NCBI GenBank assembly: GCA_902825875.1
Contig: CADECP010000005.1
Location: 50,168-114,167 of the forward strand
Source of the DNA: an uncultured Acidobacteriota bacterium
GTDB taxonomy: Bacteria > Acidobacteriota > Blastocatellia > RBC074
Direction: 5' to 3'
Length of the DNA stretch: 64,000 nucleotides
This document shows, piece after piece, positions 5,707-59,240 of this stretch. Each line of letters opens with the position of its first letter. Within the stretch, counting starts at the first letter, position 1. A model generated the notes under the pieces. It was not told the DNA's origin. It worked only from the letters and a program-made list of their open reading frames with translations, and made no database searches. Made by a program: the position numbers and the translations under genes.

Positions 5707-8700
5707 TTAGAAAATCAGCTTCAAGCCCAACTGCATCAAACGCGGATCGCGCGAACCGGTGATGCGTCCGAAAGCGTCGTTGTTATTCGTGCCGCCCGGC
5801 CCGGCACCGAACGAACCGTTCGGCGTGCCCAGGTTGACGTGATTCGGCGCGTTGAAGGCTTCGGCGCGGAATTGCAGCTTCAGCCGTTCGGTAATGGTGA
5901 AGTTCTTGAACACCGACAGGTCAATGATGATCGCGCCCGGATTGCGGAATTGGCTGATGGCGCGCGGCGTGTTGCCGAACACGTACAAAGCCGGATTCAC
6001 GAAGGCCGCCGGGTTGAACCATTGCACGCCGCGGTTTGGATTGGCATCGGTGAAACCGCTGGGCAATTCCAGACTGCCGATCCAGTCGGGACGATTTGCC
6101 AAACCGTTGTTCGCGCCGCGCACCGAAGTCGGCGTCCCGGCCACAATCGTCGTGATCGTGTTCAATTGCCAACCGCCAAGAACGTTGTTGGCCACTCCGT
6201 TTTTGAAATCGAAGCGTTTGCCCGCGCCGAAAGGCAGTTCGACCAAACCGCTGACCACCAAACGATGCGGCACGTTCGACGGGTCTTCCGAACGTTCGGC
6301 GCGACGATTGTACAAACCGTTCTGATAGCCGAAATCGTTGCCGCCTTCCGAACCTATGAAGTTCAATCCGTTGAAGATCGAATCGCTGATGAGTTTGGCG
6401 AAGGTGTATGAAGCCAGCACCGTGAAGCCTTTGGAAAAACGTTTTTCCGCCGACACCAGCATTGAGTGATAAATCGAATTGCCCGCGTGCGGCGCTTGGA
6501 CGGTGATGCCGCCGACATAAGGCAGCGGACGCAGCGCCTGAGCCTGTGTGATGGTCGCTCCGCCGAATGGGCCTGGGACTTTGCCCGCGAACGGATTCGG
6601 CACGTTGTTGGTCAGGCGTCCCGCCAAACCGAATTCACGAATCTTCGCCGGATCGGCTTGATTCAAATCGTAACTGCCGGACAGCAAGTGAGTGCCGTGA
6701 TTGGCCGAATAAGCGACTTCGACCAGAAAGCCTCCGCCGAGTTGTTGTTGCAAGGACAGATTCCATTGCTGCGACATCGGCGTGCGCGAAATTTGCTCTT
6801 TGAACGACGCGCTGGACGTGGCAAAAAAGTTCGGCCCTAAACGCGCGCCCAAGGGTTGATTCGGCGCGAAGGGAAAACCGTCCTTGAATTGAAATGCCGT
6901 CAGCAGGTTGTTGCCGTTCGGCGCAGGGTAAGCCGTCGTCGTTCCGGCAAAACCGTTCGTGCTTTCGTAATTGGCGTTCCAATAAGAAAACAGCGCCGAC
7001 ATAAAGATGCCGTAACCGCCGCGAACAACCGTTTGCTGATTGCCGCGCACATCCCACGAAAAACCCACGCGCGGCGCGAAGTCGTTTTTGTCGTCTTCGG
7101 AAAAGGTTCGCCCGTAATCAATGCAGGCGTATTGCGTCAAGCCTGGCAGACTGTTGGTCGGGTTCGTAGCGAAAGGATTGAACCTCGAAGTGCCGCAACG
7201 CCGTTCGTAAGGCTGTTGCTGGTAATCGTAACGCAATCCCAAACTCAGACTCAGGCGGCGGCGAATCTTCCATTCATCGTTGACGTAAAAACCGTAAGAC
7301 TTGCCGACTTCGGATTCGCCCAGATGCGTCGTCACGCTGGCGCTGCCGACCGCGCCGAGCAAAAACGTGGCGAATTGATTGCCGGTGTTGATGCGGTTGC
7401 CGGCGATGGGCGCGGCGTTGTCGGTCAAGGTTGTCGGGAATTGGAAATCGCCGGACGGCGAGCTTTTTTGCAGGTTGTTGGCCTGTGTCAGTCGCAACTC
7501 CGTGCCGAATTTGACTGTGTGATTGCCTTTCAACCAGGTCAGCGAATCAAACAATTGCCAGACCGAGCCGCCGCGTTTGCCCACAGTGCCGGTGTTGAAT
7601 CCGGGCAAACCGTTGTTCGGACGCGGCAACACATCCGGCGGAACGATTGACGGCAAACCCAATTGCGACGGCAGGTTCTGATCGGCGCTCGCCACCTTGA
7701 ATTCAAAAATCTGCCGCGCCACGCCGATGCGGAATTCGTGAATCAGGTTCGGCGTGAAGTTGTGAATGTCGCTCAGCACGACGTTGTGTCCGCGAAACGG
7801 GTCGGTGCGTTGGCGCACAATCGGATCGGGATAAAGATTCGCCGTGCCGTTGTCGGTGAACTGTTTGTAAAAGGTGTAGCGCGCCGTGAAGTTGTTCTTT
7901 TCAGAAAAGCGATGATCCACGCGCGAAGTGTGATTGGTCAGCGTGCGTTTGTTGCTGACCGCGCCGAAGAAATTGTTCAGATTGGTGAAGGCGTTGTCCG
8001 CCGTGCGGTTGGGCAGCGGATAAAACCGCAGGAAGTTTTTCGAGACCGCATCAATCCGATTGGCCGGAATGATGTTGCCGGGAAACGGGTCGCGCAGAAA
8101 GCCTTGCCCGTTCGGATTCGGGCGAGTGGTCGCCGGATCGTAAATGATGATCGGTTTGCCTGTGGCGTCGGCCAGCTTGGAAAAATCGCCGTTGCGGAAA
8201 GCTTCGGTCGGCAAGGTGTAAAAGCCCGAAGCGTTGGTTACAAACTGATAGCCTTCATAGTTGTAAAAGAAAAAGCTCTTGTCGCGTCCGTCGTAACCCA
8301 GCGGCCCGAAGACTTTGCCGGGCAAACGGATCGGCCCGCCAATCGAACCGCCGTATTGGTTGTAACGCAGCGGCTGTTTCGGACGCCGCGCGCGATTGTT
8401 GGCCCAAGAATTGGCGTCGAGCGAATTGTTGCGGAAAAACTCGTAAACCGTGCCGTGATAAGCGTTCGTGCCGGCTTTGGTCACCAGGTTCACCACGCCG
8501 CCGAGCGTGAAACCGTATTCCGCCGACATGGTGTTGGTCTGGACTTTGAATTCCTGCACCGAATCCACGTTCGGATTGATGTTTGCGTCCGGCAGATAAG
8601 CATTGACGCTGCTCAAACCGTCCACAACCAGATTGTTGGTGGCGAACGGCGAGCCGTTGATGCGAATGAACGAGACCTGCGTGCCGCGATCCGCAAAGCC

Positions 8701-31620: not shown

Positions 31621-32296
31621 TCCCGCCATCGTCCCGCCTCAATTGATTGACCAGCAAATGCGCCTGTCGAGTCGGTTCCGGTTGGCGATATTTCGTCACT
31701 GACCTCATTGCCAGATCAACCGCCGTATTCAAATCCATCAAGTGCCCGGCGGAGATGTACACCGGCGCAACTTTCTTTTTCGTCCTGAGCGCAACGCCGA
31801 CAATTTCCTGTTTGTCTATCAATGGCGAACTGCTTCCGGCATCCAAATCAAGCTTGCCGTGCCGCCCAACCAGAATGCTTTTCGCACAACCAAGCGTTGG
31901 CAAATCCAGAATCAATCCGATGTGACAGGCGATGCCAAACCGTCGCGGATGAGCCAGCCCTTGTCCGTCCAGCATCAAGGCATCCGGCTTGGTCGTCAGC
32001 TTTTCCCAGCATTCCAAAAACGAAGGCGTTTCGCGGAAACTCAACAAGCCCGGCACGTACGGAAACTTTGCCGTGCTGCGAACGCTGGAGGTTTCGACAA
32101 TCTGCAAATCAGGCAGGCTGAGCACAACAATGCCGGAGTAGATCACGTCCGAAAATCGGTTGAAGGAAATGTCTGCTCCGGCAATGGTGTGGATTTCGTG
32201 GTTGGGCGGTTCGATGCGAACCAGCGAGCGCCATTCTTTCTGGGCTTCGATGGCTTCTTTAGGCGTCAGATTCCAATTAGTAAGCGAATAAGGCAT
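31616..32296 (-). CDS. nfi: Endonuclease V (deoxyinosine 3' endonuclease)
   Basis: AGADISF, YVPGLLSFRE, DGQGLAHPRRFGIACHIGLILDLPTLGCAKS match Nfi catalytic motifs. Confidence 0.85.
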   Translation of the reverse strand: MPYSLTNWNLTPKEAIEAQKEWRSLVRIEPPNHEIHTIAGADISFNRFSDVIYSGIVVLSLPDLQIVETSSVRSTAKFPYVPGLLSFRETPSFLECWEKLTTKPDALMLDGQGLAHPRRFGIACHIGLILDLPTLGCAKSILVGRHGKLDLDAGSSSPLIDKQEIVGVALRTKKKVAPVYISAGHLMDLNTAVDLAMRSVTKYRQPEPTRQAHLLVNQLRRDDGGI

Positions 32297-32318
32297 AGAC
32301 AGGATTTACAAGATTCAC
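32295..32318. repeat. Left arm of inverted repeat 'tagacaggatttacaagatt' flanking the GxxExxY gene
   Basis: 21-nt perfect match to the reverse complement of 32734-32757. Also present at 55059-55078. Confidence 0.7.
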
Positions 32319-32323
32319 AGGAT

Positions 32324-32713: not shown

Positions 32714-32733
32714 AGACTACACACCATCCTGTT

Positions 32734-32757
32734 AATCTTGTAAATCCTGTCTATTAT
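32734..32757. repeat. Right arm of inverted repeat (aatcttgtaaatcctgtcta) flanking the GxxExxY gene
   Basis: Reverse complement of the left arm. Starts 21 nt past the GxxExxY start codon (32713). Confidence 0.7.
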
Positions 32758-33299: not shown

Positions 33300-34352
33300 T
33301 TGAAAATGCCGGACGCTTACCGTAGCTTCGCGCGCGTGAAGGCATTACGTTTTGAACAAGGCGAATTGCATCTGGCTGAAATCGCCAAGCCCAACCGCGA
33401 AGGCGAAGCGTTGGTGCGCGTGACGCTGGCTGGAATTTGTAATACCGATCTGGAAATCGTTCGTGGTTACACCGGGTTCAACGGCACGCTCGGTCACGAA
33501 TTCGTCGGCGTCGTCGAAACTTCGCCCGACGCATCGCAAATCGGTCGCCGCGTCGTCGGCGAAATCAACATCGGCTGCGGCAATTGCAACTGCTGCCAAG
33601 CTGGCGATGCCCGGCATTGCACGACGCGAACGGCGCTCGGCATTCATCGCCGCGACGGAGCGTTTGCCGAGTTTCTGACCTTGCCGCCGCAAAATCTTTT
33701 TGTCGTTCCTGACAACGTCAGCGACCGTCAGGCAGTGTTCACAGAACCGTTGGCCGCTGCCTGCGAAATTTTGGATCAAGTCACGATAAATTATTCGCAC
33801 AAAGTCGCAGTCATTGGCGACGGCAAGCTCGGTCAATTGATCGCTCGCGTCTTGGCGACAACCGGCTGCGAATTGATTTTGATCGGCAAACACGCCGACA
33901 AGCTGGAACTTGCGGCCAAAGCCGGAATCAAAACATTCAAGTGCGGAGTCAGCGGGTACGGAACCGGGAGCGGTAGCGACCGGGTTCGTTCTGGCAAAGA
34001 AATAACCGGGGCGCTACACCGGAGTTTTGATTTTGTCGTCGAAGCCAGCGGTTCCGTCAGCGGATTGCAGACGGCGCTCGATTTGGTGAAAGCGCGCGGG
34101 ACAATCATTTTGAAATCCACTTTTCACGGCGGAGCGGTTCCAGTGGACACCACGCGCATCGTTGTAGATGAAATCTCGCTGGTTGGCTCGCGCTGCGGAC
34201 GATTTGAAGCTGCCTTGAAACTTCTGGAATCCGGCCAGATCAACGTCGAACCATTGATCGCCGCCGAATTCCCTTTAACCGAAGCCGTCAACGCGATGGC
34301 TTCTGCCGCAAAACTCGGCACGTTGAAAACTCTACTGACTACTGTCTACTGA
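33300..34352 (+). CDS. Zinc-dependent alcohol dehydrogenase, MDR superfamily (sorbitol/threonine-DH-like)
   Basis: GICNTDLE, GHEFVGVV, structural-Zn Cys cluster CGNCNCCQAGDARHC, Rossmann VIGDGKLG. Carries a 25-aa insertion encoded by a REP-like element. Confidence 0.8.
   Translation: MKMPDAYRSFARVKALRFEQGELHLAEIAKPNREGEALVRVTLAGICNTDLEIVRGYTGFNGTLGHEFVGVVETSPDASQIGRRVVGEINIGCGNCNCCQAGDARHCTTRTALGIHRRDGAFAEFLTLPPQNLFVVPDNVSDRQAVFTEPLAAACEILDQVTINYSHKVAVIGDGKLGQLIARVLATTGCELILIGKHADKLELAAKAGIKTFKCGVSGYGTGSGSDRVRSGKEITGALHRSFDFVVEASGSVSGLQTALDLVKARGTIILKSTFHGGAVPVDTTRIVVDEISLVGSRCGRFEAALKLLESGQINVEPLIAAEFPLTEAVNAMASAAKLGTLKTLLTTVY
33947..34024. repeat. REP-like element 'gaaccgggagcggtagcgaccggg' inserted in frame in the ADH gene (encodes GVSGYGTGSGSDRVRSGKEITGALH); homologous to the hairpin at 59152-59240
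   Basis: 25/26-nt identity of the core to the intergenic palindrome after hisS. Partner arm degraded here. Confidence 0.5.
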
Positions 34353-34365
34353 CTACTGTCTACTC
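34332..34365. repeat. Heptanucleotide tandem repeat (CTACTGA/CTACTGT)x4.7 spanning the ADH stop codon
   Basis: ctactgactactgtctactgactactgtctact. Same unit as the tract upstream of hisS. Confidence 0.6.
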
Positions 34366-55017: not shown

Positions 55018-55186
55018 TCCACGAAGTCACACGAAGCAGCACGAAGAAGAAAAGACCTTAGACAGGATTTACAAGATTGGACAGGATTGACTGGCAGTCT
55101 GTTGAATCAGGCTTTCATCCTGTTGCATCCTGTAAATCCTGTCTAAAAATTTCTTCTCTTCGTGTCCTCTTCGTGTGTCTTCGTGG
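55018..55186. repeat. Composite nested palindrome: outer CACGAAG-decamer arms enclosing an 'empty' copy of the tagacaggatttacaagatt hairpin
   Basis: Outer arms ccacgaagtcacacgaagcagcacgaagaag... / ...cttctcttcgtgtcctcttcgtgtgtcttcgtgg. Inner arms tagacaggatttacaagatt / atcctgtaaatcctgtcta. Confidence 0.6.
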
Positions 55187-56871: not shown

Positions 56872-56940
56872 GCGCGTTTGTAGTTCCGCCTTTAGGCGGC
56901 TGAAGTTACGCAGCCGCCTAAAGGCGGAACTACAAACGCG
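56872..56940. repeat. Perfect about 30-bp-stem palindrome (gcgtttgtagttccgcctttaggcggctg / loop aagttacg / reverse complement); each arm also self-palindromic
   Basis: Seen directly. Lies 2 nt after the crotonase stop and 22 nt before the MBL start. No T-run. Confidence 0.55.
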
Positions 56941-57825: not shown

Positions 57826-57866
<41 letters not shown>

Positions 57867-59151: not shown

Positions 59152-59240
59152 ACCCGGTACAGAACCGGGAGCGGTAGCGACTGGGTGATTTCGTGAAGCA
59201 CTCACCTAGTCGCTACTGCTCCCGGTTCCATACCAGTAAC
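59152..59240. repeat. REP-like palindromic element (gaaccgggagcggtagcgactgggtga / tcacctagtcgctactgctcccggttc) between hisS and aspS
   Basis: 27-nt arms with 2 mismatches, loop tttcgtgaagcac. Core also found inside the ADH gene (33961-33985). Confidence 0.6.

Follow-up and report, generated by a model that had tools for sequence, protein, structure and literature searches.

The window analysed here is a stretch of 64,000 nucleotides (nt) from an uncultured bacterium of the Acidobacteriota (Blastocatellia, RBC074; contig CADECP010000005.1 of assembly GCA_902825875.1). It contains two copies of a palindromic repeat, referred to as family A: a degraded copy that lies in frame within an alcohol dehydrogenase (ADH) gene of the medium-chain dehydrogenase/reductase (MDR) superfamily, and an intact copy outside any gene. 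The coordinates of both are summarized in Table 1.

The longest open reading frame (ORF) of the ADH gene is intact and spans positions 33300-34352 (350 amino acids, with a TTG start at 33300), and the database protein P0001, which is 100% identical to the window ADH, begins with MPDAY at 33306. All the features of the MDR zinc-ADH superfamily are present in the protein, namely a GroES-like and a Rossmann domain, the zinc ligands and GxGxxG. The Pfam domains ADH_N (76.5 bits) and ADH_zinc_N (43.4 bits) each score above their cut-off, and the closest relative in the PDB is 4ej6 (E = 4e-35). The window ADH does not reach the cut-off of any NCBIfam equivalog, and its assignment is at the MDR family level. 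The zinc ligands and the GDGKLG motif (C47, H66, E67, C93, C96, C99, C107 and G173-D-G-x-x-G178) are invariant across 38 orthologues. Since the amino acid identity with the orthologue at locus L001 (97%) exceeds the identity at third codon positions (94%), and since the catalytic residues are invariant, the alignments indicate that the gene is still under purifying selection.

In a database search, the relatives of the window ADH are annotated as metagenome-assembled genomes (MAGs) of Acidobacteriota/Blastocatellia. Every locus fetched has the same order of neighbouring genes, endonuclease V - FKBP - ADH - alpha/beta hydrolase - M50 peptidase, which makes the orthology secure. At L003 an extra PDDEXK_3-domain gene (L003:2056-2403), which is absent from the window and the other loci, is located between the endonuclease V and FKBP genes.

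Table 1. Positions of the repeat copies and of the ADH host gene in the window.
Feature	Position	Strand	Evidence
ADH host gene (zinc-dependent MDR alcohol-dehydrogenase-family)	33306-34352	+	ORF call, Pfam domains, database protein P0001
Left arm of the repeat, intact, GGTACGGAACCGGGAGCGGTAGCGACCGGGT	33955-33985	+	29/31 identical to 59156-59186
Inter-arm spacer, TCGTTCTGGCAAAGAAATA	33986-34004	+	Encodes roughly RSGKEI; identical spacer in L001
Inverted right-arm remnant, ACCGGGGCGCTAC (34005-34017), then ACC	34005-34020	-	Alignment with L001 and L004
Intact extragenic inverted doublet	59156-59234	+	Arms 59156-59188 and 59202-59234, in the hisS-aspS spacer

Two repeat copies and an ADH loop predicted to be disordered

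An earlier note, made from the sequence alone, had described the core of the ADH copy as near-identical to the left arm of a palindrome after hisS. The alignment bears this out, with 29 of 31 positions identical between 33955-33985 and 59156-59186. When three mismatches are allowed, the 25-mer core has three matches in the window, at 33961-33985 (+), 59162-59186 (+) and 59204-59228 (-), which correspond to the ADH copy and to both arms of the extragenic copy and thus to two sites in 64 kb. The same search returns no match in 100 dinucleotide shuffles of the window. The genes on either side of the extragenic copy, hisS and aspS, pass the NCBIfam equivalog cut-offs.

The extragenic copy is a palindrome with 33-nt arms that are 88% complementary and separated by a 13-nt loop, and it folds strongly both as RNA (-61.8 kcal/mol, z = -11.5) and as DNA (-34 kcal/mol, z = -9.9). 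The ADH copy has lost the long hairpin and folds at -30.9 kcal/mol (z = -2.5). A 15-nt stretch, which reads CGCTTCCCGGTCCGT in L001, is deleted in frame from the window right arm between ACCGGGGCGCTAC and ACC. The partner arm, previously described as only partly recognisable, is thus a genuine right arm minus 15 nt. The idea that each arm forms a significant hairpin by itself, as in classical repetitive extragenic palindromes (REPs), was dropped, because a single arm folds weakly (DNA -5.4 kcal/mol, z = -1.0). At gathering thresholds, Rfam detects only one tRNA in the whole window and no known RNA family at either repeat site.

The left arm codes for G219-YGTGSGSDR-V229 and the right-arm remnant for T236-GALH-R241; residues 216-240 are the peptide GVSGYGTGSGSDRVRSGKEITGALH quoted in the earlier note. 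The segment between IGKHxxKLxLA and FDFVVEASG contains 18-20 residues in most of the 120 best homologues, for example AKAGIKTIELDALKIDPASR, compared with 37 residues in the window protein and 22-60 in a set of its relatives. The alignment of orthologues therefore shows a lineage-specific segment, the syntenic orthologues having 18-20 residues at this place and the window protein with its close relatives 37-60. About 22 residues (G219-H240) are repeat-derived, but since the ancestral loop sequence was lost, the segment exceeds the ancestral one by about 17-19 residues net. Both values fall short of the 25 or so added residues proposed before.

In an AlphaFold2 model of the window ADH (mean pLDDT 77), the segment lies between the βC strand (residues 211-214) and the βD strand (residues 243-248) of the Rossmann domain. 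The site is thus inside the ADH coding sequence, as had been stated, but it is located within the Rossmann fold rather than between the Rossmann region and the DFVVEASGS strand. The pLDDT falls below 50 at residues 217-234, so the model predicts a disordered loop for the repeat-encoded segment, in line with the Gly/Ser-rich surface loop suggested earlier.

Family A, an associated Y1 transposase and other host genes

A scan of species-representative genomes with GGAACNGGRAGCRGTAGCGAC yielded at least 114 stretches, nearly all of which come from MAGs of Pyrinomonadaceae or other Blastocatellia. Arms and sites were counted in these loci together with the window and L004, with three mismatches allowed, and the counts given for family A hold among the matches listed. 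In all, 277 arms occupy 146 sites, most often as a single inverted '+-' pair (55/146 sites). Arrays also occur, as in the extragenic '++++----' of L015, and several genomes hold 5-7 loci each. The consensus of 271 arms is about 29 nt long (TACGGAACCGGGAGCGGTAGCGACCGGGT), and the spacers are mainly 30-90 nt. The arm begins with TAC-C(G/A)GA-ACCGG, so that its 5´ foot is CGGA or CAGA (CnGA). The 5´-terminal GTAG of the GTAG-REP superfamily is not found in family A, in which GTAG is internal to the arm (GCGGTAGCGA). By an ORF heuristic used instead of gene calls, 122 of the 146 sites lie outside any stop-free frame of at least 200 amino acids and are thus mainly extragenic. Family A is multi-copy, occurs as inverted doublets with a long hairpin and is mainly extragenic, which are the features of REPs and of their hairpin-forming doublets (REPINs). 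Across the species-representative genomes, the repeat is thus a genuine multi-copy family.

The family also resides in genomes whose ADH has no full insert: JBDSAM contains L120, an ADH locus without the full insert, plus six repeat loci, and JBJXFR contains both L003 and L039. Records CAZXZU, CAZMXG and CAYYDG (L005, L025, L034 and L245) carry the Pyrinomonadaceae-type repeat and are titled 'uncultured Heliomicrobium sp.', a genus of the Bacillota; L245 also has the FKBP-ADH-hydrolase-M50 neighbourhood. The organism names given there appear to be mistaken.

The arms of family A flank a transposase gene. At L017 arms at 7123 (+) and 7708 (-) enclose a gene at 7204-7677, and at L111 arms at 139 (+) and 729 (-) enclose a gene at 264-704; partial cases of arm flanking occur at L097, L106 and L117. 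A Y1 homologue is present at six of the repeat-selected loci and directly adjoins the arms at five of them. The ORFs of L017 and L111 (146-157 amino acids) match Pfam Y1_Tnp with scores of 24.7 and 29.6 bits, the cut-off being 23. PDB sequence searches, with a single sequence or with a 20-sequence profile, return no meaningful match, and NCBIfam returns none; the homology is therefore demonstrated by the Pfam matches, the motifs and a fold search. The 30 best PDB matches of the AlphaFold2 model in the fold search are all TnpA proteins of IS200, IS608 or ISDra2 or related transposases, including the E. coli RAYT (REP-associated tyrosine transposase) 4er8. The alignment contains invariant N86, H87 and H89 (NHVH), W79 that is mostly followed by T, and Y147 and Q152 with four residues between them (Y----Q), the Y motif being YVEYDQ. 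More than 1000 relatives are in the database, many of which bear the JGI label 'REP element-mobilizing transposase RayT'. Judged from the sequences, the transposase fits the class 3 TnpA_Y1 group (PMC6006769) in its motif set, in the CnGA foot of the arms and in the phylum, and on these points it also fits the Acidobacteria TIRYT group (PMC3733652). A more distant Y1 homologue (L061:331-798, 56% identity), with no arm of family A closer than 400 nt, may serve a different repeat family.

A site was considered intragenic when it lies in a stop-free frame of at least 200 amino acids with at least 150 nt on each side. Twenty-four of the 146 sites (~16%) are intragenic, and all ten hosts that were scanned contain Pfam domains above the curated cut-offs. 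Six of these ten have the insert inside a Pfam-matched region or between two such regions: a lysyl-tRNA synthetase (LysRS), an AcrB-type transporter, RNase R, a sulfatase, a DUF1553 protein and a VIT-vWA protein. The remaining hosts are a transketolase (in two genomes, at the same place), an M14 peptidase and a DUF969 protein. The transketolase insert is a 25-residue block that falls between residues 562 and 564 of 8cip, whereas the LysRS insert gives no clean gap against E. coli LysS because it sits in a variable region. The transketolase copies are one-armed remnants in two Pyrinomonadaceae genomes (L055:3530-3550 and L071:1697-1717), located between the pyrimidine-binding and C-terminal domains; they could represent another shared old insertion or another permissive loop.

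A stop codon occurs in one of the three sense frames of the arm, and five of the six frames are stop-free. The commonest frame is the sense frame that reads GTGSGSD, used in 14 of the 24 intragenic copies, and this preference points to a filter on tolerated peptides.

Erosion and history of the ADH insert

In the insert-bearing relatives, the extra residues read GTGSGSD...SLPLPVPY, and the corresponding DNA stretches are mutual reverse complements. The ADH gene of L004 holds the full palindrome, CGGTACGGAACAGGGAGCGGTAGCGAC...GTCGCTACCGCTTCCCGTTCCGTACCG, which folds at -60.4 kcal/mol (z = -7.1), and both the arms and the fold establish that the ADH gene hosts a complete palindrome in some lineages. 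The earlier note would have been contradicted by orthologues from distant taxa that carry the segment with no nucleotide similarity to the intergenic repeat; the relatives, with the whole palindrome in the gene, are of the opposite kind. A coincidence, in which a Gly/Ser-rich linker has codons that happen to resemble the intergenic palindrome, has in its favour only the low complexity of the peptide, and it is practically excluded by the 29/31-nt match with none in 100 shuffles, by the orthologues with both arms as a near-perfect palindrome and by the occurrence of the family at more than 100 loci.

The insert changes faster than the gene that contains it. The flanks of the window and L001 genes are 97% identical at the nucleotide level, and their 265 aligned codons differ by ~3% substitutions and by no indel. 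In contrast, the repeat region (~100 nt) differs by three indels, so the insert evolves faster than the rest of the gene, chiefly by indels. The window does not have the second 45-nt right-arm unit carried by L001 and L004, and the L001 left arm is missing 6 nt. All the indels between the window, L001 and L004 inserts are multiples of three. The right arm that lost 15 nt and the other in-frame indels of sister lineages agree with the old in-frame insertion proposed earlier. No microhomology was found at the endpoints of the 15-nt deletion in the comparison of the window with L001 and L004.

The same rapid change bears on the suggestion that the repeat was domesticated as a protein loop, that is, selected for a new enzyme property such as interaction, regulation or solubility. 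The insert does persist in frame in several lineages, and the Gly/Ser-rich GTGSGSD, as the commonest intragenic frame (14/24 among the matches listed), reveals a peptide filter; such a filter, however, is expected from tolerance alone, and the same peptide occurs in unrelated proteins. With three indels against indel-free flanks of 97% identity, sister lineages that deleted most of the insert, and disorder predicted by the model, we find no sign of domestication and consider it improbable.

In a neighbour-joining tree with the loop masked, the main-clade carriers of family A fall among relatives with a short loop. The short loop of L245 (GTEMPDRT) retains GGCACGGAA, the first nine bases of an arm, at exactly the position that a decayed full element occupies in its sister L244, and the short form of L003 resembles that of L245. 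The interpretation of the main-clade short-loop orthologues as never-inserted alleles was dropped, since the comparison of L244 and L245 shows that at least some of them are deletion scars. As far as the alignments allow, the main clade probably descends from one insertion that was followed by independent deletions, with some lineages back at the original length but with repeat-derived residues.

The same loop contains a second palindrome in other orthologues. A monophyletic clade carries RSDDFSR...VTTEVVTTK here, in one or two copies, which is encoded by a repeat that we call family B and for which the nucleotide data come from L122 and L123. L123 has a perfect 54-nt palindrome, CTTTGTAGTGACGACTTTAGTCGTCA-AG-TGACGACTAAAGTCGTCACTACAAAG (DNA fold -28 kcal/mol, z = -12), each half of which is a GTAG-tagged hairpin, and compared with the uninserted L121 it shows a clean gain of 17 codons. 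The family B unit GTAGTGACGACTTTAGTCGTCA has the 5´ GTAG of GTAG-REPs. In a metagenome scan family B also proved to be dispersed, with at least 120 stretches. The matches listed contain 233 arms, and of their 129 sites 24 fall within long open frames. Families A and B are unrelated and share no nucleotide position in the ADH loop, and a permissive loop explains the double occupancy better than a target-site hotspot.

Taken together, it is very likely that the copy in the window ADH is an old in-frame insertion of a REP/REPIN-like element that has since been partly deleted, and that a class 3 TnpA_Y1 enzyme, an IS200-like HUH/Y1 transposase, maintains the population of this element in the Pyrinomonadaceae. 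An inverted doublet of about 80 nt would have entered the codons of the βC-βD connection, a short, exposed and poorly conserved loop. We infer that it was mobilised by Y1 single-strand cleavage and joining, and, by analogy, we propose that the arms are bound and cleaved by the class 3 enzyme. Because the arm frames are stop-free in five of six cases, with YGTGSGSDR in the sense frame and SLPLPVPY from the inverted partner, the gene would have stayed open and the enzyme under purifying selection, the added peptide presumably being neutral. Thereafter the insert would have behaved as unconstrained and structurally unstable DNA, in which lineage-specific indels of 3n nt duplicated or removed pieces of the arms; hairpin instability, selection against a stable mRNA hairpin, or both may have driven this erosion. 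In the window lineage, the loss of 15 nt disrupted the right arm and with it the long hairpin, and in some sister lineages deletions brought the loop down to 18-20 residues, with repeat-derived residues replacing those of the ancestral loop.

Several observations weigh against this interpretation. The weak fold of a single arm (DNA -5.4 kcal/mol, z = -1.0) is one. A tblastn search with the transposase finds no copy in the 64-kb window, so that the enzyme is connected with the repeat through other genomes. Inverted arms are present at the ADH insert, but neither a target-site duplication at the ADH junctions nor a clean empty site for a family A insertion can be defined, because the ancestral loop sequence is gone, and the extragenic sites include no clean filled/empty pair. 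We infer the translation of the insert from its open frame. The arms of L004 are near the family consensus and differ from the window arm at 2 of ~31 positions, whereas 35% of the third codon positions of the two genes differ (65% identical). This is a poor fit to a single ancient drifting insert and suggests a later re-insertion or gene conversion. Both arms of L119 are of a distinct sub-variant, GTACAGGRAGCGGTAGCGAC, whereas its sister L120 (87% nucleotide identity) has the ancestral loop, which is likewise difficult to reconcile with a single ancient insert that drifted freely.

The last two comparisons would be explained if the loop had been struck repeatedly, or if a resident copy had been refreshed by gene conversion; the window copy would then postdate the clade, and old scars would serve as landing pads. 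Partial arm duplications within the ADH inserts of L004, P0012 and L001, the local amplification seen in extragenic arm arrays (L015 '++++----') and the unrelated palindrome that occupies the same loop in another clade all speak for such a history. However, the scars of L245 and L003 fit descent from a single ancestral insert in the main clade, the window and L001 have the spacer and the junctions in common, and re-insertion was not directly observed. We regard repeated hits or gene conversion as a serious but less likely rival and favour the old, partly deleted insertion.

Further repeats were noticed in the window. A perfect palindrome at 56873-56940, with 30-nt arms and an 8-nt loop (CGCGTTTGTAGTTCCGCCTTTAGGCGGCTG and its complement), lies between two minus-strand ORFs. 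Its arms combine GTAG with a short stem and a TTTA loop, the architecture of the family B repeat in other ADH orthologues. Judging from its sequence, it probably represents a second family of REP doublets in this genome, of the GTAG type. Another family, ATAGACAGGATTTACAAGATT..., has inverted copies at 32295-32323 and 32726-32754, which are 402 nt apart and directly upstream of the FKBP gene, and also occurs at 55040-55164, a palindrome with 48-nt arms near 55.1 kb. Tandem heptamers (CTACTGA/CTACTGT) are present at 34331-34364 (4.7 copies) and 57826-57865 (5.7 copies). The former array overlaps the ADH stop codon, so that the C-terminus (...LLTTVY) is repeat-encoded, and the latter is directly upstream of the likely hisS start. 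The C-termini of the ADH orthologues vary (TTVY, TTGN, TTDN and TTGNRKLETGN), which suggests that the heptamers remodel the ADH C-terminus.

Relation to known systems and significance

Apart from domestication and the rarity of the phenomenon, the interpretation in the earlier note is supported. That note had considered repeats domesticated as loops of proteins to be uncommon. Events of this type have been described in other bacteria, however, and the present case does not reveal a new mechanism: intragenic GTAG and CGTC REPs are catalogued in several phyla (PMC3733652, PMC10969869), and in-frame palindromic repeats in functional genes are the hallmark of the Rickettsia palindromic elements (RPEs), according to the accounts of Ogata et al. 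(2000) in PMC10969869 and PMC3733652. A literature search found no report of in-frame intragenic palindromic repeats for Blastocatellia. In a soil phylum that has been little studied, the ADH locus is a well-documented case of selfish palindromic DNA inside working genes. The stages of erosion are resolved at the nucleotide level, from an intact hairpin through duplicated arms and a one-armed remnant to a near-complete scar, and the intragenic copies are linked to the little-known class 3 Y1 transposases. In practice, such inserts, which are unannotated in MAGs, make proteins longer and variable in length and give rise to low-complexity loops that falsely look 'lineage-specific' in alignments and structure predictions.

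A broader view, which we put forward only tentatively, is that Pyrinomonadaceae proteomes carry a broad layer of repeat-encoded loops derived from class 3 TnpA_Y1-associated REP-like elements, with the ancestral ADH loop wholly replaced and old scars that may attract further copies. If this is true, these repeats would time and again drive the turnover of loops in free-living bacteria, two unrelated families having settled in one permissive loop.

Compared with the RPEs, as these are described in the sources cited above, family A likewise lies in frame in many unrelated and apparently functional genes, adds its peptide at permissive places and also has intergenic copies. In contrast, its sequence and phylum are unrelated (free-living soil Acidobacteriota versus an obligate intracellular alphaproteobacterium), its elements measure ~66-80 nt against roughly 100-150 bp, it is associated with a Y1 transposase, and it is less often intragenic (~16% of sites among the matches listed). 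The likeness thus concerns how the elements behave rather than membership in the RPE families.

Di Nocera et al. (2013) reported REPs inside coding regions, often as dimers that encode 20-30 amino acids, as well as Y1 genes flanked by inverted repeats of repeat families (TIRtron/TIRYT), with a sharply defined group from Acidobacteria (PMC3733652). The arrangement at L017 and L111 is of the TIRtron/TIRYT kind. That study covers genomes of the Terriglobia type (Koribacter, Terriglobus, Acidobacterium and Granulicella), whereas the genomes here are Blastocatellia, and the likeness is one of arrangement; family A also differs from the intragenic REPs of that study in having no terminal GTAG tag.

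Quentin et al. (2018) described the class 3 TnpA_Y1 proteins as REPtron-like, with ~600 flanking structures in Solibacter (PMC6006769). The class shares with the transposase described here the NHVH motif, W followed by T, Y----Q, atypical flanking structures with a CnGA foot, many copies and the occurrence in Acidobacteria. Compared by published motifs, YVEYDQ matches the class 3 consensus YV[VI][AENY]EQ approximately, and intragenic in-frame copies are not a reported feature of class 3 in that paper. The REPIN-RAYT systems of Pseudomonas and E. coli (Bertels and Rainey, 2011; PMC3116915) resemble family A in the inverted doublet with a long hairpin, the mostly extragenic location and the flanked cognate Y1 gene. 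The RAYTs, however, belong to class 2, with a YxxxNP-type motif and REPs that begin with a 5´ GTAG, whereas the transposase associated with family A has Y----Q and the GTAG of family A is internal.

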